This document shows positions 22,860 to 63,316 of a stretch of DNA of 64,000 bases, in pieces (position 1 is the first letter of the stretch; each line of letters opens with the position of its first letter). Below the pieces are notes generated by a model. The model did not search any database, was not told the origin of the DNA, and was given only the letters and a program-made list of their open reading frames with translations. Source of the DNA: an uncultured Flavobacteriaceae bacterium (GTDB taxonomy: Bacteria > Bacteroidota > Bacteroidia > Flavobacteriales > Flavobacteriaceae); contig CAYZFD010000001.1 of NCBI GenBank assembly GCA_964477735.1, positions 86,125-150,124 on the forward strand, written 5' to 3'. The translations under genes and the position numbers were made by a program.

Positions 22860-22873
22860 TGTAATCGATTACT
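22860..22873. promoter_or_regulatory. LacI-type operator candidate, site 1 (TGTAATCGATTACT)
   Basis: It matches 13 of 14 positions of the palindrome TGTAATCGATTACA. It lies 76 nt upstream of the ATG of the giant pectinesterase gene. Confidence 0.55.
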
Positions 22874-22948: not shown

Positions 22949-25900
22949 ATGAAAAACATTTTTTACTTCTTTACGCTAATGACAAGTATGTTTGTGTCTT
23001 TTGCACAGACTAGCTTGTCTAATGCTACCGCAGGAGCAACAATTACTTACGATTTTGCCAATGGTTTAACAATATCGGGAGATACGTCTAGGTTGGACAG
23101 CTTTCAAACAGCCGACAATCTTGTAGGCTTTACGAGTGTGAACACCAACAACGATAGAAAGTTTTGGTGGCATGATACTCAGCATGGGGTTAATTTTTAT
23201 GTAAACAACACAGTTGAAATTTCAGTTGCTGGACGTGCACAAATCACTTTTTATACGTGTACCTATGGAGGGCCAAACACTTTCATCGAATTTTCGGATG
23301 CCTCTGGAAATGTTTTGGGCACTGTTCGAGCAGACAACAGGGGTGACACAGATGGGCAAGGATTTACCTTCGACTATACTGGTCAAGCAGGCATTGTTAC
23401 TGCTACTTTTGTTGGAGATGACAAAGCCATCTATATTCATGGATTAAAAGTTGAAAATTCAAACGGTTTAGCTGATGTTTGGGACTTTGGCGCAGAACAA
23501 TTGGATGCCAATTTGTATGACAATATGCTCGATGTGGCCACCATTAATGGATGGTATGACGCTGCGATTACGCCTGGTTCAAACGGCAACACTTTACCAG
23601 ATTTTACAGTTGGTGCCGTTTCATGGGTAGGAAATCCTGCAAGTGATCGTTTGAGAACTACAAACACCAGTTTAACCAGAAAAGATGAAAACATCTATGG
23701 GGCCACCGATGCCACAGGACTTGTGTATGCCAATGGGACCACTGACGGATCGATTCGTTATTTTACGATTGACGCTCAAGAAAACGATGAAATCACATTC
23801 AAAGCTAGGTCTGGAAATAGTGGCGGAAATTTAAGATTCCATTTGGTTTCAGACCCTACGGTTCAAGATGAATTTTCTGAAAACTTGGGTGATATTAAAG
23901 ATCATACATTTGTGGCCAAGCAAACAGGCACCTACAAATTATATGATGCTGCTGATAAATTGATTGTTTATAGAATCACTCAAAAGGAAGCAAACTACAA
24001 ATTACTTTCAGGAACTGTTGATGTTTCAGCAGCAGGTGGAATACCCTCAGATTTTCAGATTGTTTTCACCAATCAATTTGGAGAGGAATGGGCCGTAACA
24101 CCTTCTGGAGGCAACTATAGTGTGAGCATTCCTGAAGGGCAAAACTACACATATAGCTTATCCAATGCTCCAGGCTATCAGTTTCAACTTGCTGCATCAG
24201 CAACTCCTAGTTTTACTTATGACGCTAGTGTAACAGGATTAAATATTGCAATAGAAGCTGTTAAAGCTAAAGTTTGGGACTTTGGCGCCGAGCAATTTGA
24301 TGCCAATTTGTTTGAAAACATGCTCGATGTGGCCACCATTAATGCATGGTATGACGCTGCGATTACGCCTGGTTCAAACGGCAACACTTTACCAGATTTT
24401 ACAGTTGGTGCCGTTTCATGGGTAGGAAATCCTGCAAGTGATCGTTTGAGAACTACAAACACCAGTTTAACCAGAAAAGATGAAAACATCTATGGGGCCA
24501 CCGATGCCACAGGACTTGTGTATGCCAATGGGACCACTGACGGATCGATTCGTTATTTTACGATTGACGCTCAAGAAAACGATGAAATCACATTCAAAGC
24601 TAGGTCTGGAAATAGTGGCGGAAATTTAAGATTCCATTTGGTTTCAGACCCTACGGTTCAAGATGAATTTTCTGAAAACTTGGGTGATATTAAAGATCAT
24701 ACATTTGTGGCCAAGCAAACAGGCACCTACAAATTATATGATGCTGCTGATAAATTGATTGTTTATAGAATCACTCAAAAACAACCCATTTACCAAACCC
24801 TAACAGGGGCTGTTGACGTGAGTTTAGCACCTGGAATCCCTGCCAATTACGGGATTGTTTTTACAAACGAATTTGGAAAACCTTTCACCGCGACCATGTC
24901 TGGGGGCAGTTATAGCGCCACCCTACCTTCGGGTTATGATTATCAAATTTCTCTTGAAAACGCCAATGGCTACGTATTGTCTGTTACAGAAGTTGCCGTA
25001 GATGAAACCACCAAAGTACTCAATTTGGCTATTGTCAAAGCGGTTGTTTATCAAGTTTCAGGATCCATTTCTGGTCTAGGCTCAGACATAAGCAATTTGG
25101 CACTGACCTACGCAGCAGATCCAGCCGCAGGAAAACTTTTTGTGCCTAAGCCCAAAATTAATGCAGCCGCAGGTACTTACACTGTAGAACTAGAGGCCAA
25201 CGTTGCCTATACCATCACAGCAAGTGGGGTTAACGATTACACGCTAAGTCCAGAGACGATCACTATTGGTGAAGCAGCCGAAACGGCTAATCTCACCTTT
25301 ACGGAGAAACCTAAATATGCCATTACCATCACTTCCGATGATTTGGATGCCACACAATTAGGAAAGTTGGCGCTAACGTTCACAAACGTCAATGAAACAG
25401 GCTACGAATACACTTTTGCGGACGTATCTACAGTTGAGCTTCGTGACGGAACCTATACTTTAAGCTATTCAGGTTTGGATGAATATCCGCTAGAAATGGC
25501 CCTCACCTCCAACCTAACCGTTGATGGTGCCGCAGGATCTAAAAACCTGAGCTTTAACAAAGTAACAAATTGGAGTTTTGATGACAGGGTTATTGTCCTT
25601 GCCGACACGCATTACAAAGGACTTCAGCTCACACAAGTGAAAAATGAAATTGCAAAAGGTCATGTAGGGGTTAGCACTGCTGCCACGATCAAAGTCCCTG
25701 TTGGGGTTAATGAAAAAATGACAGTGAGCTATTATTATGCAGCCAACTTCTCAATCGATGGAGGCACTGCAATTACAACCTCATCGGGAAGCACTTCAGT
25801 GATTGAAACCGCAGAATACATCAACACAGGAGCAGCTGCAACTTATGTCACCTTGACTTTTGGAGGAACCACCTACATCACCAACATCAACGTTGATAGG

Positions 25901-27934
25901 ATTGTTCCTTACAAAGAAGTGGTCACTGTGGGTGTTGATAAAGACTATCTCACAATAAATGGAGCTATCGAAGACATCAACAAAATGGTGAGAACTGAAA
26001 CTCAGCGTGTAACCGTTTTGATTGATCCAGGAAACTACGAGGAAATGGTCGTCATCTCAAGCCCAAATATCACATTCAAAAACGCCGCATCGATGCCTAG
26101 TATCGCTTTGGCTAACCAAGGCGTTGATATTGACGACAATGCCGTAAGAATTACTTCATATTATGGCTTTGGCTACCATTATTATAGCCAGGGAGATGAC
26201 AACAAATGGAATGCTGAAGTTTTAGAAGTAAATAAAGCCAACGGATATCGTTCAAATGATAATGTTTCTGGAACGACTAAGGCCTCATATTGGAATGCCA
26301 CAGTGGTTGTGAGCAGCACAGGATTTACTGCGGAAGACATCATCTTCGAAAACTCATTCAACCAATACATTTCACTTAAAGAATCACAAGATGTTGTTGT
26401 TGAGGGCAATGGCACTAAAGGGCCTAGGCCAACAACAGTCGGAGATGTTTCTGTTCAAAACCGAAGCTTTGTAGAACGTGCAGCAGCCATAGGAATTGCT
26501 GGCGGAGCAGACAAAGTTGTCCTTAACAATTGTCGTGTGGTTGGTCGTCAAGATGCCTTCTTCGGAAACCGCGGTGCGCGAGTAGCCGTATATCGAGGTG
26601 CCATGATGGGGGCTGTTGATTACATTTTTGGTGGCATGACAGCGGTGTTCTATCACACAGACTTTGTGCTCAATACCAGTGATACTGCAGGTGATGCAGC
26701 CTACATTACTGCAGCACAACAAGATGGTGGTCGAGGATATCTGATGTATGAATGTAATGTTATTTCAACAATTCCAGAAGTTGAAACAGCTTCATTATAT
26801 GGGGCCAAACCAGGATACTTTGGTCGTCCATGGCAAGCCAACACAAGTGAAGTGGTGTTCTATAAAACCAAAATTGATACGTCAACCTACCCAGGTGACG
26901 AAGGTAAATCTCTAATTTCTGCAGAGGGATGGACAAGCTCACTTGGCGGAGAGTCTGCAGGAATGTATGAATTTCAGACGGTTGAGAAATCTGGAGTTGA
27001 CAACACTGCAAGTCGTGCGAGTTGGGCCACGCTGCTCACAACTCCAACCCTCAACGATGGAACTGACATCACCACTTTTAACTTCACCAAAGGCAGCGAC
27101 GATTGGGATCCATTCCCAGCCCTTAGAGCTGCTGATGATACCGACGGCGACACCATCGTTGATTTAGATGAAATTGAAAATGGTACAGATCCATCAAAAG
27201 CAGACACCGATGGCGACGGAAAAGATGATGCCGAAGAAGGCCTAACAGATTTCGACGGAGATGGCATTATTGATGCTTTAGAATCTAGCACAAATGACGA
27301 AGACGGCGACGGTTTGGCCGATGAAAAAGACGTGGACAATCTTGATCCTCTTTCTGATTCTGATGGCGATGGCTATTTAGATTATGATGAAACCACTCAA
27401 AATCAAAGTGATGCGAACGATGCCACCTCTGTTCCGCTTGACACTGATGGGGATGGAACATCAAACCTGAATGACGACGACGATGATGATGACGGTTTAA
27501 CTGATGCACAAGAAGCCTTGATTGGATCGAATCCTACCTTGGTTGACTCTGATGGCGATGGTGTTAATGATTTAATAGACAACTGTCCCACCACCAGCAA
27601 CGCCGATCAGTCAGATCTTGATTTCGATGGAATTGGAGACGTTTGTGATGATTTAAAAATTACAGCATCTCAAGCCATCACTCCCAATGGCGATGGCATT
27701 AACGACACTTGGTTGGTGGAAAATATTCTCAACCATCCAAAGAGCGTGATCCGTGTCTATAACCGTTGGGGTGCTGAGGTTTTCTCAGTTGTTAATTACC
27801 AAAACGATTGGGATGGTCGTCGCAATACAGACAGCGCCTCTAGGCTGCCTAGCGGGTCATACTACTACACCATTGATTTAGATGGTGATGGCTCACCAGA
27901 AGACAAGGGATGGATTTATATAGCGTCGAACTAA
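22949..27934 (+). CDS. Giant secreted multidomain pectinesterase (CE8) with Ig-like domains, thrombospondin-type-3 repeats and a T9SS type-B C-terminal sorting domain
   Basis: The ORF track starts at a TTG at 22907. The ATG at 22949 gives the signal peptide MKNIFYFFTLMTSMFVSFAQ (1661 aa). CE8 motifs are GRQDAFFG, DYIFGG and FGRPW. TSP3-like repeats include DTDGDG, DSDGDG and DFDGDG. The C-terminus reads ITPNGDGINDTWLVENI...VYNRWGAEVF...GSYYYTIDL. Confidence 0.85.
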   Translation: MKNIFYFFTLMTSMFVSFAQTSLSNATAGATITYDFANGLTISGDTSRLDSFQTADNLVGFTSVNTNNDRKFWWHDTQHGVNFYVNNTVEISVAGRAQITFYTCTYGGPNTFIEFSDASGNVLGTVRADNRGDTDGQGFTFDYTGQAGIVTATFVGDDKAIYIHGLKVENSNGLADVWDFGAEQLDANLYDNMLDVATINGWYDAAITPGSNGNTLPDFTVGAVSWVGNPASDRLRTTNTSLTRKDENIYGATDATGLVYANGTTDGSIRYFTIDAQENDEITFKARSGNSGGNLRFHLVSDPTVQDEFSENLGDIKDHTFVAKQTGTYKLYDAADKLIVYRITQKEANYKLLSGTVDVSAAGGIPSDFQIVFTNQFGEEWAVTPSGGNYSVSIPEGQNYTYSLSNAPGYQFQLAASATPSFTYDASVTGLNIAIEAVKAKVWDFGAEQFDANLFENMLDVATINAWYDAAITPGSNGNTLPDFTVGAVSWVGNPASDRLRTTNTSLTRKDENIYGATDATGLVYANGTTDGSIRYFTIDAQENDEITFKARSGNSGGNLRFHLVSDPTVQDEFSENLGDIKDHTFVAKQTGTYKLYDAADKLIVYRITQKQPIYQTLTGAVDVSLAPGIPANYGIVFTNEFGKPFTATMSGGSYSATLPSGYDYQISLENANGYVLSVTEVAVDETTKVLNLAIVKAVVYQVSGSISGLGSDISNLALTYAADPAAGKLFVPKPKINAAAGTYTVELEANVAYTITASGVNDYTLSPETITIGEAAETANLTFTEKPKYAITITSDDLDATQLGKLALTFTNVNETGYEYTFADVSTVELRDGTYTLSYSGLDEYPLEMALTSNLTVDGAAGSKNLSFNKVTNWSFDDRVIVLADTHYKGLQLTQVKNEIAKGHVGVSTAATIKVPVGVNEKMTVSYYYAANFSIDGGTAITTSSGSTSVIETAEYINTGAAATYVTLTFGGTTYITNINVDRIVPYKEVVTVGVDKDYLTINGAIEDINKMVRTETQRVTVLIDPGNYEEMVVISSPNITFKNAASMPSIALANQGVDIDDNAVRITSYYGFGYHYYSQGDDNKWNAEVLEVNKANGYRSNDNVSGTTKASYWNATVVVSSTGFTAEDIIFENSFNQYISLKESQDVVVEGNGTKGPRPTTVGDVSVQNRSFVERAAAIGIAGGADKVVLNNCRVVGRQDAFFGNRGARVAVYRGAMMGAVDYIFGGMTAVFYHTDFVLNTSDTAGDAAYITAAQQDGGRGYLMYECNVISTIPEVETASLYGAKPGYFGRPWQANTSEVVFYKTKIDTSTYPGDEGKSLISAEGWTSSLGGESAGMYEFQTVEKSGVDNTASRASWATLLTTPTLNDGTDITTFNFTKGSDDWDPFPALRAADDTDGDTIVDLDEIENGTDPSKADTDGDGKDDAEEGLTDFDGDGIIDALESSTNDEDGDGLADEKDVDNLDPLSDSDGDGYLDYDETTQNQSDANDATSVPLDTDGDGTSNLNDDDDDDDGLTDAQEALIGSNPTLVDSDGDGVNDLIDNCPTTSNADQSDLDFDGIGDVCDDLKITASQAITPNGDGINDTWLVENILNHPKSVIRVYNRWGAEVFSVVNYQNDWDGRRNTDSASRLPSGSYYYTIDLDGDGSPEDKGWIYIASN
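23477..24780 (+). repeat. Intragenic tandem duplication, period 795 bp
   Basis: 23477..23985 aligns with 24272..24780. By my count there are seven mismatches in the first 74 bp. Then 23551..23985 equals 24346..24780 exactly (435 bp). The segments that follow each copy are only distantly similar. Confidence 0.9.
25919..27115 (+). other. CE8 pectinesterase catalytic region of the giant protein (approximate bounds)
   Basis: The region runs from VVTVGVDKDYLTINGAIEDINK to about DDWDPF. It contains GRQDAFFG (26543..26566), DYIFGG (26618..26635) and FGRPW. Confidence 0.7.
27134..27652 (+). repeat. Asp-rich thrombospondin-type-3-like calcium-binding repeats (protein-level repeat)
   Basis: Reiterated DxDxDGxxDxxE-type units: DTDGDTIVDLDE, DTDGDGKDDAEE, DFDGDGIIDALE, DEDGDGLADEKD, DSDGDGYLDYDE, DTDGDGTSNLND, DSDGDGVNDLID and DFDGIGDVCDD. 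Confidence 0.8.
27659..27931 (+). other. T9SS type-B (gliding-motility-associated) C-terminal sorting domain
   Basis: ITASQAITPNGDGINDTWLVENILNHPKSVIRVYNRWGAEVFSVVNYQNDWDG...LPSGSYYYTIDLDGDG...GWIYIASN shows the characteristic TPNGDGxND, YNRWG and YYY features. Confidence 0.8.
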
Positions 27935-27956
27935 GTTGAATTTTTAAACACAGAAA

Positions 27957-28841
27957 ATGAAAAAATTAAAATTATATACCACTGCACTTTTTTTAGGAGT
28001 CATGACCTTTTCATGGTCTCAGCAAGAAAGCTCTGTTTATCAGTTCAATGACTTGATGCTGATTTACAACCCAGCTTATGCAGGCACCAGCACACAAGCA
28101 AACATTACCACCGCCTATGTTAAAGAATGGGCGGGGGTAGCTTTGTCTCCCGAAACGAAATTCTTAAGCTATGATAAGGCCCTAGGTAAGGGCTTGGGCT
28201 TGGGACTTTCGGTGATCAACGACAACACATTTGTGGAAACACAAAACCTTTTGTCGTTAGACTTTTCATTTAAAATCCAGGTTAGTGAAGAAACAGATTT
28301 GTTTTTTGGATTAAGAGCTACAGGAATGTTTTACAACCTCAATGCTAGCGGACTTGAGACATTGAGCAGCGTCTCTGATCCAAGTTTGGTTGACATTAGC
28401 TTATTCAAACCCAACATGGGCTTTGGATTTCACCTCAAAAACCACAAATGGAATATGGCGTTGTCGATTCCTCGTTTTTTCAATACCAGCCGCATCTCAG
28501 AAGAAAATGGGATTGCATTGTTGTCCACGGGTAAAACCCACGTCTATGGATCAGCCAGTTATAACTTTGCCCTCGATGGCGCAAACACTTTTGTGCTAAG
28601 ACCTGGAGTGTTCTTTAGATATGCCGGCGGAATTCCAATTTCTACTGACCTTAACGCCACCTTAATTTATAATCAAAAAGTTGAGTTTGGGGCGACTTAT
28701 AGAGTGGACAGTAATTTTGCCGCATTATATGCCGTTCAAGTTTCACCAAAATTTAAATTGGGTGTAGCCTATGGCATGAGTGCACGAGATTTGCAGGACA
28801 TAGATAGTAATTATGAGTTTATGCTCAAATATAGCTTTTAG
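27957..28841 (+). CDS. PorP/SprF-family type IX secretion system membrane protein
   Basis: 294-aa ORF with a signal peptide. It has the N-terminal YQFNDLMLIYNPAYAG motif and beta-barrel-like alternating pattern typical of PorP/SprF. It lies 22 nt downstream of a type-B CTD gene. Confidence 0.8.
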   Translation: MKKLKLYTTALFLGVMTFSWSQQESSVYQFNDLMLIYNPAYAGTSTQANITTAYVKEWAGVALSPETKFLSYDKALGKGLGLGLSVINDNTFVETQNLLSLDFSFKIQVSEETDLFFGLRATGMFYNLNASGLETLSSVSDPSLVDISLFKPNMGFGFHLKNHKWNMALSIPRFFNTSRISEENGIALLSTGKTHVYGSASYNFALDGANTFVLRPGVFFRYAGGIPISTDLNATLIYNQKVEFGATYRVDSNFAALYAVQVSPKFKLGVAYGMSARDLQDIDSNYEFMLKYSF

Positions 28842-28864: not shown

Positions 28865-28912
28865 ACACCTAATCTATCGAGCAAAGATGCTTTTTAGGTT
28901 AGGTGTTTTTTC
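28865..28912 (+). terminator. Weak candidate terminator after the PorP/SprF gene
   Basis: An 8-bp stem acacctaa / ttaggtgt (28865..28872 with 28899..28906) is followed by tttttt. The loop is long (26 nt), so confidence is low. Confidence 0.3.
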
Positions 28913-28921
28913 CCGCTTAAC

Positions 28922-30643
28922 ATGAAATACATTGTTTCAACTTTAACGCTGCTTTTCGTTTGGGCTTGCTCCAAAAGCGAAACTGTTGAAGAACAAAAGC
29001 CAACAGCGGTTCTTGTGCAAAAAATAACGATTGTTGGCCAGAATATTTCAGATGGCACAACCCAACAATTAAGCGCTACCATTTCTCCAACAGACGCCTC
29101 CAATAAAAGCATTACTTGGTCCACCTCCGATGCTTCTATTGCAACCATAGACCAAAAAGGATTGCTCTCGGCAGTGAGTAACGGAACCGTAAATGTTAAG
29201 GCCACGGCTAATGATGCTTCTAAAACCATTGGTCAAAAATCTTTCTTGGTCTCAGGAGTTGTCATTGCCGTACAAAGTGTTAATATACAAGGAGGACGTG
29301 ACATTACAGACACCAAAAGCTTGCAACTAGAAGCACAAGTGCTTCCTTCAAACGCCACCAACAAGGCGGTGGAGTGGGCTGTTTCGGATGCCAATATTGC
29401 TGAGATTTCCCAAACGGGCTTGCTAACACCCAAAACCAATGGCGCCGTTGTGGTCACACTCACCTCTAAAGCATCAGCTTCGATTCATAGCCAAATTACC
29501 ATTAACATCTCAGGATTCAATGGACAGGGAACCAACCTAAACACGGCCCAGCAGATCATGGCCGCTATTGGGAATGCACAACCAGGCGATGTCATCACCA
29601 TTGATGCCGGCACCTATGCTTTTGGATCTTCAATTGGGCTTTCTAAATCTGGGACAAATAGCGCCCCAATTACCCTTCAGGCCAACCCCAATACTACCGA
29701 TAGGGTTGTATTCGATTTTTCTTCAATGTCAACATCATCTTCCAATCGGGGTGTTCGCCTCTCGGGGTCTTATTGGCATGTGAAGCAAATTGATTTTGTT
29801 GGTGCAGGCGACAATGGCATGTATCTTTCGGGGAATTATAACATCGTAGAAAATTGTGTTTTTAAGGAAAACAAAGACACTGGACTTCAATTAGGAGGAG
29901 GCGCCACTAAAAATAAAATTATAAATTGTGATTCCTTCGATAATGTTGACCCAACACATGAAAATGCTGATGGCTATGCAGCCAAAATGGATGTAGGAAC
30001 AGAAAACGAATTTATAGGTTGTCGTGCTTGGCAAAACTCCGATGATGGCTTTGATGGCTACCTTAGGGGTGCAGATAATGTCACCACTTATTATTCTGAT
30101 TGTTGGGCTTTTAGCAATGGCTATTTTGCAAATGGATCAAAAACAACAGGCGACGGAAACGGATTTAAAACCGGTGGAAGCGACAACAAGCTGTTAAAAC
30201 ATCACACCGTGTTTAACAACTGCATTGCAGCAAACAATGTAGCCGATGGATTTGACCACAACAGCAACAGAGGGGATATTGTCATTAACAATGGATCCTC
30301 CTACAAAAACGGGCGTAATGTTAGCTTTAGCAACACAAACATTGCCAATAATTTAACCATAAAAAACACCTTGTCTTTTGATGGTGTCAACAGCGACAGC
30401 GTAAAAGCAACCAATCTAGACGTTACCAACAACAGTTGGCAAGATGGTCTAGCCGCATCAGCCGACGATTTTGTGAGCATTAACCTCGACTTGCTGAAAT
30501 CGCCAAGAAATGCTGACGGCTCATTGCCTGTGATTGACTTTTTAAAGCTTAAAACATCAAGCGATCTCATTGATAAAGGGGTAGATGTTGGGCTTCCCTA
30601 TTTAGGCAACGCCCCTGATTTGGGTGCTTTTGAACTTAAATAA
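28922..30643 (+). CDS. Pectate lyase, PL9-like parallel beta-helix, with two N-terminal Big_2 Ig-like domains; lipoprotein
   Basis: 573-aa ORF with lipobox VWAC followed by SKSETVEE. There are two Big_2-like segments (..LSATISPTDASNKSITWSTSDASIATID.. and ..LEAQVLPSNATNKAVEWAVSDANIAEIS..). The beta-helix region has GDNGMYLSG, ENADGYAAK, WQNSDDGFDGY and GDGNGFKTGG. Confidence 0.7.
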   Translation: MKYIVSTLTLLFVWACSKSETVEEQKPTAVLVQKITIVGQNISDGTTQQLSATISPTDASNKSITWSTSDASIATIDQKGLLSAVSNGTVNVKATANDASKTIGQKSFLVSGVVIAVQSVNIQGGRDITDTKSLQLEAQVLPSNATNKAVEWAVSDANIAEISQTGLLTPKTNGAVVVTLTSKASASIHSQITINISGFNGQGTNLNTAQQIMAAIGNAQPGDVITIDAGTYAFGSSIGLSKSGTNSAPITLQANPNTTDRVVFDFSSMSTSSSNRGVRLSGSYWHVKQIDFVGAGDNGMYLSGNYNIVENCVFKENKDTGLQLGGGATKNKIINCDSFDNVDPTHENADGYAAKMDVGTENEFIGCRAWQNSDDGFDGYLRGADNVTTYYSDCWAFSNGYFANGSKTTGDGNGFKTGGSDNKLLKHHTVFNNCIAANNVADGFDHNSNRGDIVINNGSSYKNGRNVSFSNTNIANNLTIKNTLSFDGVNSDSVKATNLDVTNNSWQDGLAASADDFVSINLDLLKSPRNADGSLPVIDFLKLKTSSDLIDKGVDVGLPYLGNAPDLGAFELK

Positions 30644-30724
30644 CAACATGAGTATATTGCCAAAAATAAAATGTTTTTTGAGGAAGATAACAGATTTATT
30701 TTATAAAAAAGTCCTGCAAAATCA

Positions 30725-30744
30725 TATCTTTGCAATCGATTACT
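30725..30744 (+). promoter_or_regulatory. -7 box TATCTTTG overlapping LacI-type operator candidate, site 2 (TGCAATCGATTACT)
   Basis: TATCTTTG (30725..30732) matches the Bacteroidota TAnnTTTG consensus. The operator lies at 30731..30744, and the kduI ATG is at 30758. Confidence 0.55.
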
Positions 30745-39822: not shown

Positions 39823-41429
39823 TGAAAAGTCCAATTTTGCAACTCGAGGCCACCGATAATGTAGTAGTGGCTCTAGAAAATCTTACAGCAGGAACCACGG
39901 TGACTACAGAGGGGTTTTCCATTGAGGTTAAAGAAAACATAAAAGCCAAACACAAAATGGCACTTCATGACTTTAACATTGGCGACGCCATTGTTATGTA
40001 TGGTTTGCTGGTTGGTAAAGCAACAGAGCACATAGCTGCTGGAACGGCACTTCACGTGGACAATGTGAAACATAGTAAAAGTGAAGCCGCTATTCTAGAC
40101 ACCAATTATCAATGGACATCACCCAATATCACTGCCTGGCAAAACCGAACTTTTATGGGTTATCACAGAGCCGATGGACAGGTTGGTACAGAAAATGTAT
40201 GGCTTTTCTTTCCACTGGTTTTTTGTGAAAACAAAAATATTGAGGCCCTTAAAGAGGTTTTTGAGAAAGAGTTAGGAATTTCGTCCGAAATGGAGCTTAG
40301 AAATTATTTTCGCTCGTTGATTGGAGGTCGTGAAGAAACCCATGTAGAGCCAAAAGCAAATCCTATACTTTCCAATATATCACTAAGGTTTTTAACCCAC
40401 CAGGGCGGATGTGGGGGCACTCGCGAAGATGCTGTTATGTTGGCCAAGCTGCTTGCAGGTTATGTCAATAATCCCAATGTGGCAGGGGTCACTGTACTTA
40501 GTTTAGGATGCCAAAACCTACAAGTTGAGATTTTCAAGAAAGCACTGCATGACATCAATCCAAACATTGAAAAACCTGTTTTGATTTTTGACCAACAAGA
40601 GTCGGGGAATAATGACAAAATGATGCAAAAAATCATTGCAGAAACTTTTGAAGCCTTGAAAACAGCCAATAATATCGTTCGTCAGCCCGCACCGCTATCT
40701 AAACTTAGTGTTGGGTTAGAGTGTGGAGGTTCTGATGGTTTTTCGGGGATTTCGGCAAACCCTGTTTTGGGGCGCGTGAGTGATATTTTGGTGGCCTTAA
40801 AAGGCAAAGCTATTCTTGCAGAATTTCCTGAACTATGTGGTGTTGAACAAAACTTAATTGACCGCTGCGTTAAGCCTCAATCAGCGCATAGATTTTTGGA
40901 ACTCATGAAAGCCTTCGAAGCTTCGGCCATAAAAGCAGGCTCTGGTTTTGATATGAACCCATCTCCAGGGAACATCAAAGATGGCCTAATTACAGATGCG
41001 ATGAAAAGTGCTGGTGCTGCTAAAAAAGGAGGTACCGCGCCCATCGTTAATGTGGCAGACTATGCTGAATATTGTAACGAAGAGGGACTACACCTGCTCT
41101 GCACGCCAGGAAATGATGTTGAAAGCACTACGGCCTTGGCCGCATCGGGCACCAACATTATTTTGTTTACAACAGGATTGGGAACACCTACTGGCAACCC
41201 TGTTGTGCCAGTCATAAAAGTATCTTCGAACAGTCACCTTTTTGAAAAAATGGGCGATATAATTGACTTTGATGCAGGAACTGTTATTACAGGGAATGAA
41301 AGTCTAGAAGAGGCTGCCGACCGTTTGTTAAACTACATTGTTGACGTGGCTAGTGGCCACTCCACAACAAAAGCTGTTCAGAATAAACAATATGATTTTA
41401 TCCCTTGGAAAAGAGGGGTGTCGCTTTAG
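39819..41429 (+). CDS. uxaA: Altronate dehydratase
   Basis: The ORF track begins at 39702 inside uxaB. The ATG at 39819 (ATGA overlap with the uxaB stop) gives 536 aa starting MMKSPILQLEATDNVVVAL (SAF domain). Later motifs include GLECGGSDGFSG and LLCTPGND. Confidence 0.9.
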   Translation: MMKSPILQLEATDNVVVALENLTAGTTVTTEGFSIEVKENIKAKHKMALHDFNIGDAIVMYGLLVGKATEHIAAGTALHVDNVKHSKSEAAILDTNYQWTSPNITAWQNRTFMGYHRADGQVGTENVWLFFPLVFCENKNIEALKEVFEKELGISSEMELRNYFRSLIGGREETHVEPKANPILSNISLRFLTHQGGCGGTREDAVMLAKLLAGYVNNPNVAGVTVLSLGCQNLQVEIFKKALHDINPNIEKPVLIFDQQESGNNDKMMQKIIAETFEALKTANNIVRQPAPLSKLSVGLECGGSDGFSGISANPVLGRVSDILVALKGKAILAEFPELCGVEQNLIDRCVKPQSAHRFLELMKAFEASAIKAGSGFDMNPSPGNIKDGLITDAMKSAGAAKKGGTAPIVNVADYAEYCNEEGLHLLCTPGNDVESTTALAASGTNIILFTTGLGTPTGNPVVPVIKVSSNSHLFEKMGDIIDFDAGTVITGNESLEEAADRLLNYIVDVASGHSTTKAVQNKQYDFIPWKRGVSL

Positions 41430-42448
41430 GACTTAAGAATTTGTGATGACTTTCGAACGAGTAGTTCTGGCTTGAGCTTGGCTGATTGTTCTAAAACAAC
41501 ATCTTTATTGTTCACTTTTTCCAAAAATATTCTTGCAGCACTTTCACCCATCACAATGGGGTTTTGTTCGATAGAAGTAATGGAGAGCTCGAGCAAACTG
41601 GTAAAAGGTTCGTTACTAAATCCTACAACAGCAATTTCATCGGGAATTCTTACCTTAAGACTTTGTAAATGCTGAATTACACCCAAGGCCACATAGTCAG
41701 AAGAACAAAAAACAGCATTAGGGATTTTAGGTAAATTCAATATTTTTTTGGCAACCTTTTTTCCAGAGGCGATATCACTTGTGGCCTCGAAAACCAATTC
41801 TTTGTCAAAAGGGATGTTGTTGTTGCCCAGTGTAGATTTGTAACCGTCAAATCTATTTTTGTAAATCCCTAACTTTAAATCTCCTGAGACGAAGGCAATT
41901 CTTTTTCTATTTTGATCAATAAGATGTTGAGTACCCAAAATCCCTCCCGTATAATCATCAAGCGTAATAGAACTTGTGCCTGGGGTGTCGAACTTTCGGT
42001 CAAAAAATATTAGGGGCGTGCCACTATTGACCACTTTTCGAAAATGAGCGTCACTTGTTGTTTTTTTGGACAATGAAATGATGATGCCATCAACTTGATT
42101 GTTGAGCAAGGTTTCAATAATCTCCTCTTCTCTTTTTTCTGATTCGTTGGTTTGAAAAATCATAACTTGATATCCTTTTGGATACAAAGTTTCCTCTACA
42201 CCTCTAATCACATTAGAGAAAAAATGGCGGTTGATGGTGGGCACTACCAACCCAACCACGTAGGTCTGCCCACTTTTGAGTGCCAAGGCATGCTTGTTTT
42301 TGTTGTAATTTAACTCTTCAGCAGTTTTCAGAACCAGTTTACGTGTTTTCTCACTAATCAATTTACTGTTGTTTAGTGCTCTAGAAACGGTCGCTGCCGT
42401 GATGTTCAGTTTTGAAGCAATGTCATAAATGGTTGCTTTCTTACTCAT
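41426..42448 (-). CDS. LacI-family transcriptional regulator (candidate pectin-locus repressor)
   Basis: 340-aa ORF with N-terminal HTH ATIYDIASKLNITAATVSRALNN and a periplasmic-binding-protein-like sugar-binding body. It is divergent from the susC-like gene. Confidence 0.9.
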   Translation of the reverse strand: MSKKATIYDIASKLNITAATVSRALNNSKLISEKTRKLVLKTAEELNYNKNKHALALKSGQTYVVGLVVPTINRHFFSNVIRGVEETLYPKGYQVMIFQTNESEKREEEIIETLLNNQVDGIIISLSKKTTSDAHFRKVVNSGTPLIFFDRKFDTPGTSSITLDDYTGGILGTQHLIDQNRKRIAFVSGDLKLGIYKNRFDGYKSTLGNNNIPFDKELVFEATSDIASGKKVAKKILNLPKIPNAVFCSSDYVALGVIQHLQSLKVRIPDEIAVVGFSNEPFTSLLELSITSIEQNPIVMGESAARIFLEKVNNKDVVLEQSAKLKPELLVRKSSQILKS

Positions 42449-42515
42449 TTATATTTTTTAGTTGTCAATTCCTCAAAATTATGAATAATTATTTTGGTAT
42501 ATGGGAAAATTTTAA

Positions 42516-42537
42516 TAATATTGTGTAATCGATTACA
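42516..42537. promoter_or_regulatory. -7-like box TAATATTG abutting a perfect LacI-type operator palindrome, site 3 (TGTAATCGATTACA)
   Basis: The perfect 14-bp palindrome lies at 42524..42537, in the 108-bp gap between the regulator start (42448) and the susC-like ATG (42557). TAATATTG at 42516..42523 is one mismatch from TAnnTTTG. Confidence 0.65.
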
Positions 42538-42556
42538 TAACAACTTAATAAGAATT

Positions 42557-45500
42557 ATGAAAAATTTATGTGAAAACTTATTATTCAAGCGGTTCCATGC
42601 TGCGAAGCACATGGTTGTCTTGTTTATCTTTTTTGCTTTTCATTTGGCCTCTGCACAACAGTCTGTTTCGGGCGTTGTATCAGATGAAGCAAGTGGAGCG
42701 CCTTTGGCGGGGGTCACCGTCGTAGAAAAGGGCACAAACAATGGTGTGGTTTCAGATTTTGATGGAAATTTCACCATTCGCGTCGCATCCAGCAATGCGG
42801 TTTTAACGTTCTCTTATTTGGGCTACAAAACCGTTGAACAAAGTGCTGGAAATGGTGCGCAACTCAACGTAACCATGTCAGAAGACTTCGAAACCCTAGA
42901 TGAGGTTGTTGTGGTTGACTATGGTTATGGAAAAGTGAGAAAAGAGAACATGACAGGTTCTGTTGCCAGTATTTCAAGCAAGGAGCTCGCCAACATTCCT
43001 GTTTCAAGTGCGGCCGAAGCTTTGTCTGGTCGTTTGCCAGGGGTAAAGGTTACAACTTCTGATGGTGAGCCTGGTGCTGAAATTACCATTCGTGTTCGTG
43101 GAGGGGGATCTATCACACAAGACAACTCTCCCCTCTATGTTGTTGATGGGTTCATTGTGAGCTCTATCAGTGACATTCCGCCCACAGATATTTTGTCTAT
43201 CGACGTACTAAAGGATGCTGCAGCTACAGCTGTATATGGTGCACAGGCTTCAAACGGGGTTGTGGTGATCACCACCAAGAGTCCCTCAGAGGGCAAGGTA
43301 GAAGTCGCCTACAACAACTTTTTTCAATTTAACACACTTCCCGAAGATAGAAGATATGAGGTGTTATCCCCTTATGAATTTGTGTTGGCCAACTATGAGT
43401 ATTCACTCCTAAAAGGGGCTACTGATTTGCAAAGATTTGAAAGATTTTTCGGAGTTTATGATGATTTAGATCTCTACAAATCCAAGCAAGGAACCGACTG
43501 GCAAGATGAACTCTTTGGAGGGCCAAGAATGTCTGCGTTTCATAATTTCACTGTGAGCGGTGGTACAGAAATGACAAAGATGAGATTGAGTGTTTCGAAA
43601 AACCAAGATGAAGGTTTGTTAGAGGGCTCAGCATATGACCGTACCGCCATTAACTTTAAGGTCAATCAAAAAATTAGTGAGAAGTTAATTTTGGATGTTT
43701 CTACACGTCTAACTTCTACTCAAATTGATGGGGCTGGTACTTCCACCAATGCTCAGCTTAAAATTAAAGATGCTGTTCAAACCCGACCTGTGAACGGGAT
43801 TGCCGATGAGCTTGACATTGATTTAACGAACATCAATTCTGATGACGATTTTCAGTCCTTTTTGCTCAGCCTTGTGAACCCTAAAGAGTTGGTGAAACAA
43901 GACTGGAGACAACGCAATGACAAGGATTACATCATAAATGCAAGCTTGTCTTGGAATGTAACCGATGATTTAACTTTTAAAACTTCTTACACCAACAACA
44001 GACGTTTTAGAGAAGATCTACGTTTTTATGGGCCTCTTACAAGTGAGTCTTACCAAAACGGAGGGAGCATGCCTTTGGGTAAAAAGACCAATACCGACTA
44101 TGAGTCCTACAGGCTGATTAACACCCTTAACTTTAGAAAGGAATGGGGAAAAAACAAATTTGACGCACTGATTGGTAATGAAATTTCATCAAGTGGTGGG
44201 AAAGAGTTTTTCTTAAGAGCCGAAGATTTTCGTTTGTCCATAACACCCGAAGAACTTTTTGCTAACATGGCCTTTGGTCGTGCCGATCAACACTACACAA
44301 GAGATTTTACCAATTCTAACAGAGAATCTTATTTTGGGCGTTTAGACTATCAATTCAACAACCTTATTGTTCTAACAGGAACCTTCCGTGCCGATCAATC
44401 GAGTCGTTTCTCGAAAGAAAATCGTTTAGGATTCTTCCCCGCAGGAGCACTAGCCGTTAAACTCGATAAATTGGAATTTTTCAAAAGCCTAGGCTTTATT
44501 GACCAATTGAAAGTACGTTTAACATATGGTGAAACAGGTAACGACCGAATTGATGCCACCGCAACGCAATTCTTGTTTAGCGCAACTACTGATAGAGGGG
44601 TAGGATTTAACAATTACTTCAATGTCTATTACACCCCAAGCAGCTCTGCTTTGTATAACCCCGATTTGGTTTGGGAAACAACAGCCAGTGCCAACCTAGG
44701 GCTTGACTTTGGATTGTTTAACAACAGAATTAGAGGGTCTTTAGATGTTTATCAGAACACGACAAGAGATCTTCTATTGCAGTCTGCCATCCCAAACAAT
44801 ACTGGATTTAATACGCAGTGGAACAATGTAGGATCTACCCAAAACCAAGGTTTTGAATTGGGGTTAAATGCAGCACTTGTCCGCAATGATAATTTCAATA
44901 TGTCATTAGACTTTAATATTGGTAAAAACGATTTCAGAATAGTTGAGCTTGATGGCACAACCGAAAGATTCGAACGTTCAAATTGGGCAAGTACAGACCT
45001 TAATAACATCAACGATTACTACCTTCAGCTCGGAGGAAGAGTTGGTGATATTTATGGATATGTAACCGATGGATATTATGCCACTTCAGACTTTGCTTCA
45101 TACGACGCTTCCTCTGATAAATATACACTCAATGCCGATGTGCCTTCATCTGGAGCAGTTGTAGGAAACATCAACGTAAGACCAGGATTCTTAAAATTAA
45201 AAGACCTCAATGGTGATGGTGCTATTAATGCTGATGACAGAACAGTTATCGGAAATGCAACTCCAGATTTCCAAGGTGGTTTTGGATTGAATCTTAACTT
45301 TAAAAACTTTGACTTGTCATCGTTCTTCAACTTCCAAGTTGGAAATGAAGTGTATAACACAGGAAAGATTCAATATAACCAATTTAGAAGGGTTACTTTC
45401 GGCAATATGCTAAACACCATGAACATGGCGAATCGCTTTAGTTATTTAGATGTTGATGGAACCTATACTGGAACTGCTGGAGGTTTAGTGACCGATCTTG

Positions 45501-49360: not shown

Positions 49361-49395
49361 ACAAGGCGTTTTTTCTAAGGCGCCTTGTTTTTGTT
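49361..49395 (+). terminator. Intra-locus rho-independent terminator/attenuator after the susC-susD-lipoprotein unit
   Basis: An 8-bp stem acaaggcg / cgccttgt (49361..49368 with 49381..49388) is followed by tttttgttt. It lies only about 10 nt before the PL1 ATG at 49406. Confidence 0.6.
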
Positions 49396-49405
49396 TAATC
49401 TCACC

Positions 49406-50950
49406 ATGAAAAAACACCTATTTCTATTTGTTTTCTTGACCCTTTCTTTTTTAGGAAGTTGTGCAACAGAAAACCCAATTCAACTACCCCAACAATCACA
49501 AAACTCAGACAACTCTGATGACAGCAGTGACAATTCTTCCACTACTGACAACAGCAACACCGGTGGTGACAACTCCACTAGTGACCAGCCAGTACAATCA
49601 AGCGACGAAACTAAAGCTTTTCCGTCTGCTGAGGGTTTTGGAATGAATACTACTGGAGGGCGTGGTGGAAAGGTCTTGTTTGTGACCAATCTCAACGATG
49701 ATGGAGCAGGAAGTTTTAGACGTGCCATAAACACAAGTGGCGCCCGATATATTTTGTTTAAAGTATCAGGCACCATTCAATTAAAATCATCACTTTCGGT
49801 TAACATAGGAAACCTCACCATTGCTGGACAAACGGCCCCTGGAGATGGGATTTGCATTGCTGGATATCCTTTTTCAATTAATGCCGACAATGTGATCATT
49901 CGTTTTATGAGATTTAGGCTGGGAGACATCAATAATGTAGAGGCTGATGGTCTTGAGTCGAGGTTTCACAAAAACATTATTATAGACCATTGCTCTGTAA
50001 GTTGGTCAGTTGATGAATGCCTGTCTTTTTATGGCAATGAAAACACAACCATTCAGTGGACTTTTGTTACTGAAAGCTTGCGATCTTCTGTACATTCCAA
50101 AGGTAACCATGGTTATGGAGGTATTTGGGGCGGTAAATACGCCAGTTTTCATCACAACTTAATTGCGCATCACGACAGTCGAAATCCAAGGCTTGGCGAA
50201 CCAGCAGGAGATGTTTTTGCCCTAACCGATTTGGTTGACTTAAGAAACAACGTCATCTACAATTGGGGAGGCAATAGTGCCTATGGTGGCGAAGCCATGA
50301 ACGTGAATATTGTCAATTGTTATTACAAACCAGGCCCGGCATCAAAAAACACGAGTCGCATCATTTCTATCGATAAAAATACGGACAGCTCTACGCCCAT
50401 TTACAACAAATGGGGAAAATACTATATTAGAGGAAATGTTATGGAAGGCAATGCCTCGGTCACAAACAACAACTGGAAGTATGGAGTAGAAAATCAGTTT
50501 AACAGCAAGTATGGCACTTTAACCCAGTCTGAACTTGATCAAATCAACATTAGTGAACCACACAACATTAACAACAATGTGGTTACGCATACTGCCCAAG
50601 AAGCCTACGAAAAAGTGTTGGAAGTGGGAGGCGCTTCATTGGCTAGAGACGTTAACGACAAACGAATTGTTCGTGAAGTCGAAAACAAAAACTACACTTT
50701 CAGCGGATCTGCTGGAAGCACGAATGGTTTGATTGACTCGCAGAAAGATGTGGGCGGTTGGCCAGCTTTAAACAGTGCAACATATCCCACAGACAGTTCA
50801 GGTGATGGCATGCCAGATGCTTGGAAAGAAAGCATGAAATTATCGGTTTCTGCAAACAACCCCAACGGAAATGAGCTAAGCACTGCGTACGATAACATCG
50901 AAGTTTATATCAACAGTTTGGTTAAAGAAATTGTAGAAAAACAAAAGTAG
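49406..50950 (+). CDS. Pectate lyase, PL1 family, lipoprotein with Ser/Asp/Asn-rich linker
   Basis: The ATG at 49406 gives MKKHLFLFVFLTLSFLGSC (lipobox), 514 aa. Motifs are AFPSAEGFGMNTTGGRGGKVLFVTNLNDDGAGSFRRAI, IIIDHCSVSWSVDE and SRNPRLG. A low-complexity linker lies at 49490..49609. Confidence 0.85.
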   Translation: MKKHLFLFVFLTLSFLGSCATENPIQLPQQSQNSDNSDDSSDNSSTTDNSNTGGDNSTSDQPVQSSDETKAFPSAEGFGMNTTGGRGGKVLFVTNLNDDGAGSFRRAINTSGARYILFKVSGTIQLKSSLSVNIGNLTIAGQTAPGDGICIAGYPFSINADNVIIRFMRFRLGDINNVEADGLESRFHKNIIIDHCSVSWSVDECLSFYGNENTTIQWTFVTESLRSSVHSKGNHGYGGIWGGKYASFHHNLIAHHDSRNPRLGEPAGDVFALTDLVDLRNNVIYNWGGNSAYGGEAMNVNIVNCYYKPGPASKNTSRIISIDKNTDSSTPIYNKWGKYYIRGNVMEGNASVTNNNWKYGVENQFNSKYGTLTQSELDQINISEPHNINNNVVTHTAQEAYEKVLEVGGASLARDVNDKRIVREVENKNYTFSGSAGSTNGLIDSQKDVGGWPALNSATYPTDSSGDGMPDAWKESMKLSVSANNPNGNELSTAYDNIEVYINSLVKEIVEKQK

Positions 50951-58267: not shown

Positions 58268-59211
58268 AGAGATTCGCAAAAGGAAATATCAACTTAGTTG
58301 TTTTACTGATCATAACGGGATATTTATCTGCTCAAGTTTCGCCACCCCAAGCACGACCCTACACGCTGACCTCAACCTATGAAAAGCATATAAAAAAGTA
58401 TCCTTTTATTTCCCTTCCATCTATCGAGTCAGTTTCTGGGGTGAAAAAACTTGAAAATATTGCCTATCAATCGTCGGCTCAAGACTCTAAAACTTTGGAT
58501 TTGTTCTTGCCACAATCCGAAAAGCCATCCGCTCTTGTGATTATGGTGCACGGTGGTGGCTGGATTTCTGGAGTCAGAGAAAATTTAAATGATTTGGCTG
58601 TTGCACTGTCTAACAAAGGTTTTGCAGTGGCCAACCTAAGCTACACCCTAAGTGCCGAAGCGCCCTATCCAAAAAGTGTTTTAGACATTAAAGAGGCTTT
58701 AGTTTTTTTGAAAAACAACAGTCAAAAATGGGATTATAACCCCAATAAAATAGCTTTGTTAGGTTGTTCTGCAGGGGCGCAATTGGCCGCATTGGTGGCG
58801 CTCACTCCAAACCACCCCAAGTTTCCTGTTCAACATGTTGTTTCCGAAAACGTTCAAGCCATTGTCAATGTTGATGGTATAGTTTCTTTTATTCATAAAG
58901 AAGCTTCATCCGAAGGCCTTTATGCTGCCTATTGGTTAGGGGGGCATAAAGAAACCCACTTTGAGCAGTGGAAAGAGGCTTCTCCCTTAGAGTACCTTAA
59001 TGCGCAATCCCCTCCAATTTTATTTTTGAATAGTGCTTTTCCAAGATTTCATGCTGGAAGAGACGACATGATTGCACAGCTAAATCAATGGGGAATTGCC
59101 TCTGAAGTACAAACTTTTGATGATGCACCACATTCGTTTTGGTTGCTTGAACCTTGGTTTTCACCAACGACAGATTACATCGCTAACTTTTTAAATAAGA
59201 TATTCGAATGA
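58264..59211 (+). CDS. Alpha/beta-hydrolase esterase (carbohydrate esterase-like, specificity unknown)
   Basis: 315-aa ORF with a signal peptide, oxyanion HGGGW, nucleophile elbow GCSAGAQLA and C-terminal DDAPHSF. It overlaps both neighbours by 4 nt. Confidence 0.75.
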   Translation: MKRFAKGNINLVVLLIITGYLSAQVSPPQARPYTLTSTYEKHIKKYPFISLPSIESVSGVKKLENIAYQSSAQDSKTLDLFLPQSEKPSALVIMVHGGGWISGVRENLNDLAVALSNKGFAVANLSYTLSAEAPYPKSVLDIKEALVFLKNNSQKWDYNPNKIALLGCSAGAQLAALVALTPNHPKFPVQHVVSENVQAIVNVDGIVSFIHKEASSEGLYAAYWLGGHKETHFEQWKEASPLEYLNAQSPPILFLNSAFPRFHAGRDDMIAQLNQWGIASEVQTFDDAPHSFWLLEPWFSPTTDYIANFLNKIFE

Positions 59212-60176
59212 GAACTTTTTTAATCTTTTTATTCAGCGCCTCAGTTTTGTTGACCACCCAAAAAACGATGGCAAATGTTCCTCAAAAAACAATTGTTGTA
59301 GATGCGCAAGGCACAGGTGATTATAAGAGCGTTCAGGACGCGGTCTATGCTGTGAGGGCTTTTCTAGACACTACCACAGTCATTCGAATTAAGCCTGGGG
59401 TGTATTTTGAAAAAATCACCATCCCATCTTGGGTTCAGCACTTACAATTGATTGGAGACACTCCCGAAAATACGGTCATTCAATTTGATGATTATTCAGG
59501 AAAAAATGTTGGAGGCACTACGTTGGGCACTTTCAATTCCCACACCATGTTGGTGCAAGGAAATCATGTTCAGCTCAAAAATTTGACCGTACAAAACATT
59601 AGTTGTAATCAAGGTCAGGCTGTTGCGTTGCATGTCGAAGGAGATCGTTTTTCGGCCCTTAATGTTCAGCTTTTGGGTTGTCAAGACACTTTATATGCTG
59701 GCTCTCCAAACAGTTCACAATATTACCGTGATTGCTATATCGAAGGCACTACAGATTTTATTTTTGGCAGTGCTACAGTTTTCTTTGACAATTGCACCAT
59801 TAAAAGTTTAAAAAATTCCTACATCACTGCGGCCTCAACTCCTCAAGAAAATGAATATGGTTTCGTTTTTAGGGAATGTAAATTGGTGGCTGCAGAAGGT
59901 GTTGATCGTGTCTTTTTGGGACGGCCTTGGAGGCCCCACGCCAAAACTGTTTTTATCGGTTGTGAGCTTCAATCACATATTGTTAAAGAAGGATGGGATC
60001 CATGGAAGGGCGACAAAACCTTTCCAAACAAGGAGAAAACAGCCTTTTACGCTGAATATGAAAATCATGGAGCAGGCGCATCCGCTCAAGACAGGGTGTA
60101 TTGGTCTCACCAGCTCACGCCCGATCAAGCAGAACGCTACACTGTTGATCTTGTCTTAGGAGATCGTTTTTGGTAA
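59208..60176 (+). CDS. CE8 pectinesterase (pectin methylesterase)
   Basis: 322-aa ORF with canonical GQAVALHV, GCQDTLYAG, DFIFG and LGRPW motifs. Confidence 0.9.
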   Translation: MRTFLIFLFSASVLLTTQKTMANVPQKTIVVDAQGTGDYKSVQDAVYAVRAFLDTTTVIRIKPGVYFEKITIPSWVQHLQLIGDTPENTVIQFDDYSGKNVGGTTLGTFNSHTMLVQGNHVQLKNLTVQNISCNQGQAVALHVEGDRFSALNVQLLGCQDTLYAGSPNSSQYYRDCYIEGTTDFIFGSATVFFDNCTIKSLKNSYITAASTPQENEYGFVFRECKLVAAEGVDRVFLGRPWRPHAKTVFIGCELQSHIVKEGWDPWKGDKTFPNKEKTAFYAEYENHGAGASAQDRVYWSHQLTPDQAERYTVDLVLGDRFW

Positions 60177-63302: not shown

Positions 63303-63316
63303 TGTAATCGATTTCA
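63303..63316. promoter_or_regulatory. LacI-type operator candidate, site 4 (TGTAATCGATTTCA)
   Basis: It matches 13 of 14 positions of the palindrome. It lies 38 nt upstream of the minus-strand start codon at 63265. Confidence 0.55.

Follow-up and report, generated by a model that had tools for sequence, protein, structure and literature searches.

The pectin locus described here raises the question of why an esterase carries a secretion tag that is otherwise seen on adhesins, and where on the cell such an enzyme would come to lie. The stretch analyzed, called the window below, comprises 64,000 nucleotides (nt) from an uncultured Flavobacteriaceae bacterium (GenBank assembly GCA_964477735.1, contig CAYZFD010000001.1, positions 86,125 to 150,124 of the forward strand). 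The genes in question encode a giant type IX secretion system (T9SS) cargo protein with a family CE8 pectin esterase core and, directly behind it, a PorP/SprF-family protein. Apart from this case, T9SS substrates whose C-terminal domain (CTD) is of type B are 'known or predicted to be adhesins' (PMC12618676), and type-B carbohydrate-active enzymes (CAZymes) are rare according to surveys (PMC10792170). In our judgment the two genes probably form an operon that LacI can repress, situated on the 5' edge of a polysaccharide utilization locus (PUL), and supply a T9SS-exported esterase with carbohydrate-binding modules (CBMs) together with its cognate PorP tether.

The pair, with the modules of the giant protein in their order, consists of the following features:

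22949..27934, plus strand: giant T9SS type-B cargo gene, 1661 aa (open reading frame, profile matches, relatives)
22949..23005, plus strand: Sec signal peptide, MKNIFYFFTLMTSMFVSFA followed by QT (read by eye from the sequence)
23006..23476, plus strand: N1 module, CBM-like beta-jelly-roll, ~157 aa (AlphaFold2 and Foldseek)
23477..23986, plus strand: RA1 module, CBM-like, 170 aa (aa 177-346; 96% identity to RA2, fold as RA2)
23987..24271, plus strand: beta-rich spacer 1, ~90 aa, formerly called 'Ig-like' (internal comparison, Pfam scan)
24272..24781, plus strand: RA2 module, CBM-like, 170 aa (aa 442-611; AlphaFold2 and Foldseek)
24782..25573, plus strand: three beta-rich spacers (aa 612-875; mutually related by hhalign)
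25574..25900, plus strand: X2 module, 109 aa (aa 876-984; conserved position before CE8)
25901..27103, plus strand: CE8 pectin methylesterase-type beta-helix core (aa 985-1385; PF01095, PDB entry 9mm2, alignment with pectin methylesterases)
27104..27661, plus strand: acidic thrombospondin type 3 (TSP3) repeat stalk, 186 aa (aa 1386-1571; 34% Asp+Glu, 8 DxDxDG motifs)
27662..27931, plus strand: type-B T9SS CTD (aa 1572-1661; TIGR04131, PF13585)
27957..28841, plus strand: PorP/SprF-family outer-membrane carrier gene, 294 aa (TIGR03519, PF11751)
28865..28912, plus strand: intrinsic terminator, hairpin plus U-run (direct folding)

The open reading frame runs from the ATG at 22949 to 27934 and encodes 1661 aa, as in the original prediction, which had been made from the sequence alone. 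The order of modules given there was also recovered, namely N1, RA1 and RA2 each with a spacer, two further spacers, X2, CE8, TSP3 and CTD, as were the motifs GRQDAFFG (aa 1199), DYIFGG (aa 1224) and FGRPW (aa 1291). The database copy of the protein (P0001, 1651 aa, NCBI source) begins at Met11, which deprives the signal peptide, called by inspection of the sequence and with no predictor, of its n-region and half of its h-region; the ATG at 22949 thus appears to be the better start. Over aa 1573-1656 the type-B CTD matched TIGR04131 with 56.4 bits (cutoff 35), and within aa 1572-1658 it matched PF13585 (CHU_C) with 92.3 bits (cutoff 27), both profiles being covered near full length; an ITPNGDG motif lies at aa 1577. 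Regarding the predicted TSP3 repeats, TSP_3 and TSP3_bac scored 22.5 and 18.1 bits in the whole giant protein, just under the gathering score; a separate scan of the acidic region raised them to 26.1 and 26.7 bits, above the threshold of 25 (PF02412 and PF18884). This region also matches COMP (E = 1e-14) and thrombospondin-2, with E values ranging from 1e-14 to 1e-10.

The downstream gene proved to be of the PorP/SprF family, as had been proposed, with 181.5 bits against 90.55 for TIGR03519 (positions 1-292 of 292) and 166.5 bits for PF11751; a PDB sequence search with the PorP protein yielded no solved homologue. The protein contains zero cysteines and has no C-terminal tail, its sequence stopping at the last barrel strand (...NYEFMLKYSF). 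With the cargo gene ending at 27934 and the PorP gene starting at 27957, the reported gap of 22 nt is correct. The hairpin behind the PorP gene has a folding free energy of -23 kcal/mol, with z = -5.63 and none of 200 shuffled versions folding equally well; it was missed by the terminator scan owing to the loop limit and was recovered by direct folding. Given the 22-nt gap and the strong terminator, the giant gene and the PorP gene form a discrete unit. A PorE-like (OmpA-family) gene is not present in the operon of the window, the PorP gene being followed by the terminator and then by the gene of a PL9 lipoprotein.

The pairing was compared across the family of the enzyme. A search with aa 1-1400 of the giant as query found 186 relatives, 120 of which were listed, and among these 120 only the four closest carry PF13585. 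Ten representative tails of the other kind all found their best match in TIGR04183 (type A), 8 of the 10 at or above the cutoff. A CE8 protein with a type-B CTD is followed by a PorP gene at all five loci where it occurs, i.e. in the window and at L001, L004, L002 and L084, with a cargo-PorP gap of 22-26 nt. These loci represent three independent lineages (the window; L001 and L004; L002 and L084). At 80 non-B loci of the family (Christiangramia fulva, L003, and 79 others), blastp and hmmsearch --max with custom profiles found no type-B CTD and no PorP gene within 6 kb (next best E = 0.26 and 0.017). By our own arithmetic, the Fisher probability of the split of 5/5 versus 0/80 is below 1e-6, and about 1e-5 with three lineages. 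The flanking genes differ among the lineages, which indicates that the cargo/PorP pair travels as a unit, and the distribution as a whole backs the view of a dedicated cargo/adaptor pair, as far as sequence comparison can carry it. The CE8-linked PorP relatives (P0126-P0132) likewise lack cysteine and tail, and a PorE-like gene is absent beside all five CE8/PorP pairs. At L084 (3192-8978), which belongs to a metagenome-assembled genome (MAG) of the L002 lineage, the giant was called as two reading frames of 1345 aa and 542 aa (CE8 and CHU_C); either a frameshift, a pseudogene or faulty assembly lies behind this split.

The enzyme itself belongs to a family that is very widespread in Bacteroidota. 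According to segment mapping, a cassette of ~950 aa (RA-spacer-spacer-spacer-X2-CE8) is common to the relatives at 40-79% identity and occurs in Flavobacteriia, Prolixibacteraceae, Lewinellaceae, Cytophagia and others, with variation between family members in the copy number of N-terminal N1/RA modules and in the C-terminal tails. When one genome per species was scanned, 392 genomes gave a match, the closest being a Flavobacteriaceae MAG (76-78% identical). The cassette family is normally type-A tagged and often located in pectin PULs, and only the A-to-B swap with the added PorP is rare. The original prediction of an 'undescribed front end' for pectin capture was accordingly too strong for the enzyme; it is fair for the configuration of tag and carrier. 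Three relatives of ~2150-2190 aa (P0040, P0041 and P0068) combine CBM77, a PL1 pectate lyase, the full CE8 cassette and a type-A CTD. A reading in which the N-terminal modules are fused to pectate lyase in place of CE8 was rejected, as segment BLAST finds both enzymes in these three proteins.

As to the origin of the swap, close relatives of the window PorP are very scarce; the nearest (50-52% identity) all adjoin CE8 type-B giants, and those of the next tier (37-38% identity) adjoin adhesin-like type-B cargo with TSP_3 and CHU_C domains; the clade is not close to any named SprF. Two cargo proteins in question are composed of Laminin_G_3, TSP_3 and CHU_C (L085, Salinimicrobium) and of OLF/HYR/PKD and CHU_C (L086). 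The last TSP3 repeat and the CTD of the giant (aa 1528-1658) share 48% identity with the tail of the L085 cargo, and its first TSP3 repeats share 46% identity with those of the type-A relative L003. On the simplest reading, a recombination inside the TSP3 array would have swapped a type-A CTD for a cassette made up of the last TSP3 repeat, a type-B CTD and a PorP gene, and the same comparisons suggest an adhesin-type operon as the donor. The swap is recent enough for orthologous controls to exist.

Whether the pair belongs to the regulon of the PUL was assessed from a palindrome shared by several operons and from a regulator gene that may account for it:

22860..22873, unstranded: LacI-type operator-like palindrome TGTAATCGATTACT of 14 bp, with 1 mismatch to the perfect form and located 76 nt upstream of the ATG
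30731..30744, unstranded: second operator site, upstream of kduI (palindrome scan)
42524..42537, unstranded: perfect operator palindrome, LacI-SusC intergenic (palindrome scan)
63303..63316, unstranded: fourth operator site, upstream of a minus-strand esterase operon (palindrome scan)
41426..42448, minus strand: LacI-family regulator, candidate palindrome binder (PF00356 and Peripla_BP domains)

Allowing up to 2 mismatches, the palindrome TGTAATCGATTACA has five sites in the window, four of them directly before operon heads; allowing up to 3, it has 10 matches versus 2.8 expected, and 0 of 100 shuffles reach 10. It also precedes the orthologous giant genes at L001, L002 and L004 by 45-100 nt and occurs in the LacI-SusC spacer of a type-A relative. 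The predicted LacI-type operator at 22860 is thus shared with kduI, susC and the divergent esterase operon and kept at the orthologous giants, and membership of the pair in the LacI regulon of the PUL may be regarded as well supported at the sequence level. Two details concern the sites themselves. The kduI operator adjoins a Bacteroidota -7-like element (TATCTTTG followed by CAATCG..., window 30722-30744). The palindrome at susC lies inside a listed reading frame with a TTG start (window 42494-42560), which indicates that the true start of SusC is probably the ATG at ~42556.

The position of the pair at the head of the pectin locus agrees with its flanks, which hold housekeeping genes upstream of 22900 (Dxs, AspRS, RND efflux, SulP) and a complete pectin/hexuronate locus downstream. 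The latter begins with PL9, followed by KduI, KduD, UxaC, KdgK, Eda, a TRAP transporter, UxaB and UxaA, and continues with LacI, SusC, SusD, a DUF4957-DUF5123 protein, GH28, GH88/105, GH43, GDSL and alpha/beta esterases and a canonical CE8. A SusC/SusD pair, CAZymes, a LacI regulator and a shared operator motif, by which a LacI-controlled PUL is recognized, are thus all present in the window. The PL9 gene next to the pair (28922-30643) encodes a lipoprotein signal (...LLFVWAC) and two Big_2 domains, so that the locus seems to mix lipoprotein-anchored and T9SS/PorP-tethered surface enzymes; no operator was found within 80 nt upstream of this gene. Two genes between DUF4957-DUF5123 and GH28 (49385-50950, 521 aa; 50952-52265, 437 aa) gave no Pfam match at E <= 0.001, and their products are possible uncharacterized pectin-active proteins.

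The CE8 core, which had been recognized from its motifs, matched PF01095 with 64.9 bits against a cutoff of 27 over aa 1165-1382, which covers only profile positions 92-297 of 298. The N-terminal half outside this match is covered by PDB entry 9mm2_A (E = 5e-117), to which the core is ~60% identical over 400 aa. The core can be aligned with pectin methylesterases from plants and bacteria: Q1201-D1202 (catalytic Gln-Asp), D1224 (nucleophile) and R1293 and W1295 (LGRPW motif) align with 1xg2 and 1gq8, and the catalytic QD, D and R/W are invariant in 13 aligned family members. The first oxyanion-hole Gln ('QAVAL') is replaced (ERAAAIG) across the clade including 9mm2, by Ala or by Arg, the register being ambiguous. 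No other part of the family is as well conserved as this core (60-79% identity), an argument for selection on catalysis. This CE8 family is large and annotated, and apparently uncharacterized; a literature search on 9MM2 and on Monoglobus/cell-wall-repeat CE8 proteins found no describing paper. A second CE8 of the conventional kind (322 aa, 59208..60176) matches PF01095 over its full length with 225.8 bits, and the presence in one PUL of a classical CE8 and a divergent giant one suggests a division of labor. Outside the Bacteroidota, a Sedimentisphaerales MAG (L064, Planctomycetota; P0012) has the N1-RA-spacer-X2-CE8 cassette with no T9SS tail. Together with 9mm2 it suggests an inter-phylum transfer of the CE8 clade with exchanged anchoring modules.

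The modules ahead of the enzyme were examined by structure prediction and fold search. The AlphaFold2 model of RA2 (pLDDT 94.9, pTM 0.91) found 8x8h_A (E = 4e-7, TMt 0.68) and 8wc1 (E = 2e-6) as best Foldseek matches, followed by CBM36, CBM6 and CBM61; TM values of RA to these two entries lie at 0.56-0.68. The model of N1 (pLDDT 93.5) found the same two entries at E ~1e-4 (TM 0.51-0.58), followed by CBM6, CBM4, CBM61, CBM36 and CBM35. By their descriptions, both entries represent a carbohydrate-binding domain from a putative pectate lyase, and no describing paper for 8WC1/8X8H was found in the literature. N1 and RA have no sequence-family match in Pfam, the likeness to CBMs being one of fold, and profile-profile tests gave no significant mutual relationship of N1, RA and X2. 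Of the modules that had been left unassigned, N1 and RA can thus be placed among CBM-like beta-jelly-roll folds; X2 still has no assignment. Of the 120 family members listed, 118 have X2 immediately ahead of CE8; it is missing only in P0090 and P0092. The four spacers and X2 had no Pfam match even at E values up to 10. The spacers are inter-related (hhalign, Ig2-Ig3 94%, Ig3-Ig4 67%) and are kept in all family members; of their earlier description as Ig-like domains, the beta-rich, related character holds and the Ig label has no backing in Pfam. On these models, the N-terminal two-thirds of the giant would be a CBM array with beta-sandwich spacers, and RA and N1 are candidate new families of pectin-binding CBMs in hundreds of genomes.

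RA1 and RA2 share 96% aa identity over 167 aa, and at the DNA level a tract of 360 nt (23576-23935 versus 24371-24730) is 100% identical, whereas the spacers that follow the two copies are only 45% identical to each other. This pattern suggests either that gene conversion acted recently within an old tandem duplication or that the assembly is at fault.

The proposed course of events is modeled on the paradigms of Flavobacterium johnsoniae and Porphyromonas gingivalis. The giant would be exported by Sec and then translocated by the T9SS, and the PorP carrier would pick up the CTD at the SprA translocon and remain bound. Type-B cargo requires a cognate PorP/SprF protein encoded directly downstream (PMC12618676), and proteins with a type-B CTD gain their anchorage by binding PorP-like proteins, the CTD staying uncleaved (PMC9143113; PMC10202324). 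An uncleaved type-B CTD and PorP would likewise hold the enzyme non-covalently on the cell surface, with the Asp/Glu-rich TSP3 array as a putative Ca-binding stalk ahead of the CTD. There N1, RA1 and RA2 may bind pectin, and CE8 may de-esterify homogalacturonan to a polymer that is cleavable by PL9, GH28 and other pectinases of the locus, with the products presumably entering via SusCD and TRAP. Regarding the kind of surface display, Paillat et al. linked operons that include a PorE gene to static anchoring, and operons without one to loading on the gliding machinery (PMC12618676). Liu et al. showed that sustained movement along the track needs a Cys-X-Cys motif in the periplasmic C-tail of SprF, disulfide-bonded to GldK, and that this motif is dispensable for the carrier function (PMC12635249). 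As the pair has neither a twin-cysteine tail nor a PorE gene, the tether is probably neither track-driven nor pinned to peptidoglycan, and a tethered, non-track-driven surface display appears the most likely outcome. The giant had originally been placed in a gliding-motility type-B class; the type-B CTD stands, though it should not be taken to imply coupling to the track, as the PorP lacks the Cys-X-Cys tail of SprF.

Several points weigh against a tethered esterase. The T9SS core (GldKLMN, SprA) and gld genes were not found in the 64-kb window, and the five type-B loci stand for only three independent lineages. The CE8 clade lacks the first oxyanion-hole Gln of characterized pectin methylesterases, and a literature search found no activity data for 9mm2. 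The recombination proposed for the swap is drawn partly from low-complexity TSP3 repeats. Static type-B cargo described in the literature comes with a PorE partner, and the operon of the window has none. Finally, sfGFP-CTD(B) fusions in F. johnsoniae turn up in the culture supernatant (PMC12618676), so that release instead of tethering might occur.

The last point leads to the alternative that fares best, in which PorP only extracts the cargo from the translocon and the esterase is shed as a soluble and diffusible enzyme. Many T9SS CAZymes are soluble, which together with the CTD(B)-sfGFP recovered from F. johnsoniae supernatant speaks for such a release; it is unlikely nevertheless, since exchanging a type-A tag for a type-B tag plus a dedicated carrier brings no obvious gain if the product is released.

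We consider it distinctly unlikely that the type-B CTD and PorP load the esterase onto the gliding track for a helical sweep like that of SprB. Track movement needs the disulfide between the SprF Cys-X-Cys and GldK (PMC12635249), whereas the window PorP and its CE8-linked relatives are free of cysteine and their clade is not near any named SprF. These observations are to be set against the dynamic behavior of type-B operons lacking PorE (SprB, Fjoh_4750, Fjoh_1123; Paillat et al., PMC12618676), the absence of a PorE-like gene from all five CE8/PorP loci (0/5), and the finding that the CTD of SprB is enough to place the amylase AmyB on the track (PMC12618676).

It is very improbable that the giant serves as an inducible adhesin, its CBM array and stalk binding the cell to pectin-rich particles and its CE8 acting as a binding module or as an esterase of weak or altered specificity. 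The three CBM-like modules, the missing first oxyanion Gln and the canonical CE8 elsewhere in the locus (225.8 bits, 59208..60176) would fit such a role, yet the catalytic QD, D and R/W are invariant in the 13 aligned members and conservation within the family is highest in the CE8 core (60-79% identity).

That the PorP gene serves another cargo and adjoins the esterase by chance is hardly credible in view of the 5/5 versus 0/80 covariation in three lineages with differing flanks, the gap of 22-26 nt and the shared terminator, even though cross-talk and orphan pairs are known in F. johnsoniae (PMC12618676).

Coming back to the carrier-tethered esterase, a wider proposal would be that it exemplifies a third destination class for type-B cargo, namely a PorP-only tether with neither a PorE-peptidoglycan link nor a GldK-disulfide link; we regard this as tentative and rather doubtful. 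If true, a PUL enzyme that is normally type A (A-LPS-anchored or released) would become an 'enzyme-adhesin' that is bound to its carrier and laterally mobile, and the substrate would turn on its surface display via the LacI repressor of the PUL. In the strongest form of the proposal, the esterase would still be pulled along the cell by weak disulfide-independent contacts with the track, as reported for Cys-less SprF (PMC12635249), and would be nature's equivalent of the engineered AmyB-CTD(SprB) conveyor.

The wider interest of the pair lies in a proposed model according to which the CTD type and the identity of the PorP/SprF protein set the fate of a T9SS substrate (released, LPS-anchored, statically tethered or track-driven). 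This model was built on engineered swaps in one species, with substrates that are all putative adhesins. Here hundreds of species have an orthologous enzyme family with a type-A tag, and three lineages have it with a type-B tag and a carrier of its own, within otherwise equivalent pectin PULs. The natural swap thus offers a clean comparative system for what a cell gains from carrier-tethering a polysaccharide-modifying enzyme, and it would carry the type-B/PorP paradigm beyond adhesins, to a CAZyme under substrate regulation. It also points to a subclass of carriers with neither of the known anchoring features.

Among known systems, the SprB-SprF and Fjoh_3952-Fjoh_3951 pairs of F. johnsoniae share with the window pair the TIGR04131 CTD, a very large Sec-exported cargo and a carrier encoded directly downstream with specific pairing (Kulkarni 2019, as cited in PMC12618676; Paillat 2025). 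Their cargo is an adhesin, whereas that of the window is a catalytic CAZyme in a substrate-regulated PUL; the carrier of the window differs from SprF in having no twin-Cys tail, and its operon differs from the Fjoh_3952/3951/3950 class in having no PorE gene. In the PG1035-PorP-PorE system of P. gingivalis, the PorP barrel keeps a type-B CTD protein, uncleaved, on the cell surface (Gorasia 2022, PMC9143113), as is proposed for the window. The window has no PorE nearby, however, and its PorP would be a dedicated paralogue, whereas P. gingivalis has a single core T9SS PorP. In the Cytophaga hutchinsonii proteins CHU_3220 and CHU_1557, type-B cargo aids polysaccharide use; these are non-catalytic or hypothetical proteins outside a SusCD PUL, with no dedicated adjacent PorP reported in the accessible part of PMC11611037.

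On the side of the enzyme, the type-A giants (Christiangramia fulva C7S20_10495, P0006/L003) have the same cassette, a 73% identical CE8, TSP3 repeats, a pectin-PUL site and the operator motif; what differs is their type-A CTD, which leads by way of PorV/PorU to A-LPS anchoring or to release, and the lack of a PorP gene. PDB entry 9mm2 ('putative cell wall binding repeat-containing protein') shares the ~60% identical CE8 core, a long insert and the missing first Gln, but is anchored by cell-wall-binding repeats, presumably in a Gram-positive organism, and has neither a CBM array nor a T9SS tag. The engineered AmyB-CTD(SprB) fusion (Paillat 2025) is likewise an enzyme whose native type-A CTD was replaced by a type-B CTD; it is artificial and track-loaded via SprF, whereas the giant of the window is natural and has its own cysteine-free carrier. 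What sets the window pair apart is thus the apparent use of the type-B route for a catalytic, PUL-regulated CAZyme, with a carrier that lacks both known anchoring features (a PorE partner and a twin-Cys tail); nature appears to have carried out a tag swap here, and the system is not new in kind.

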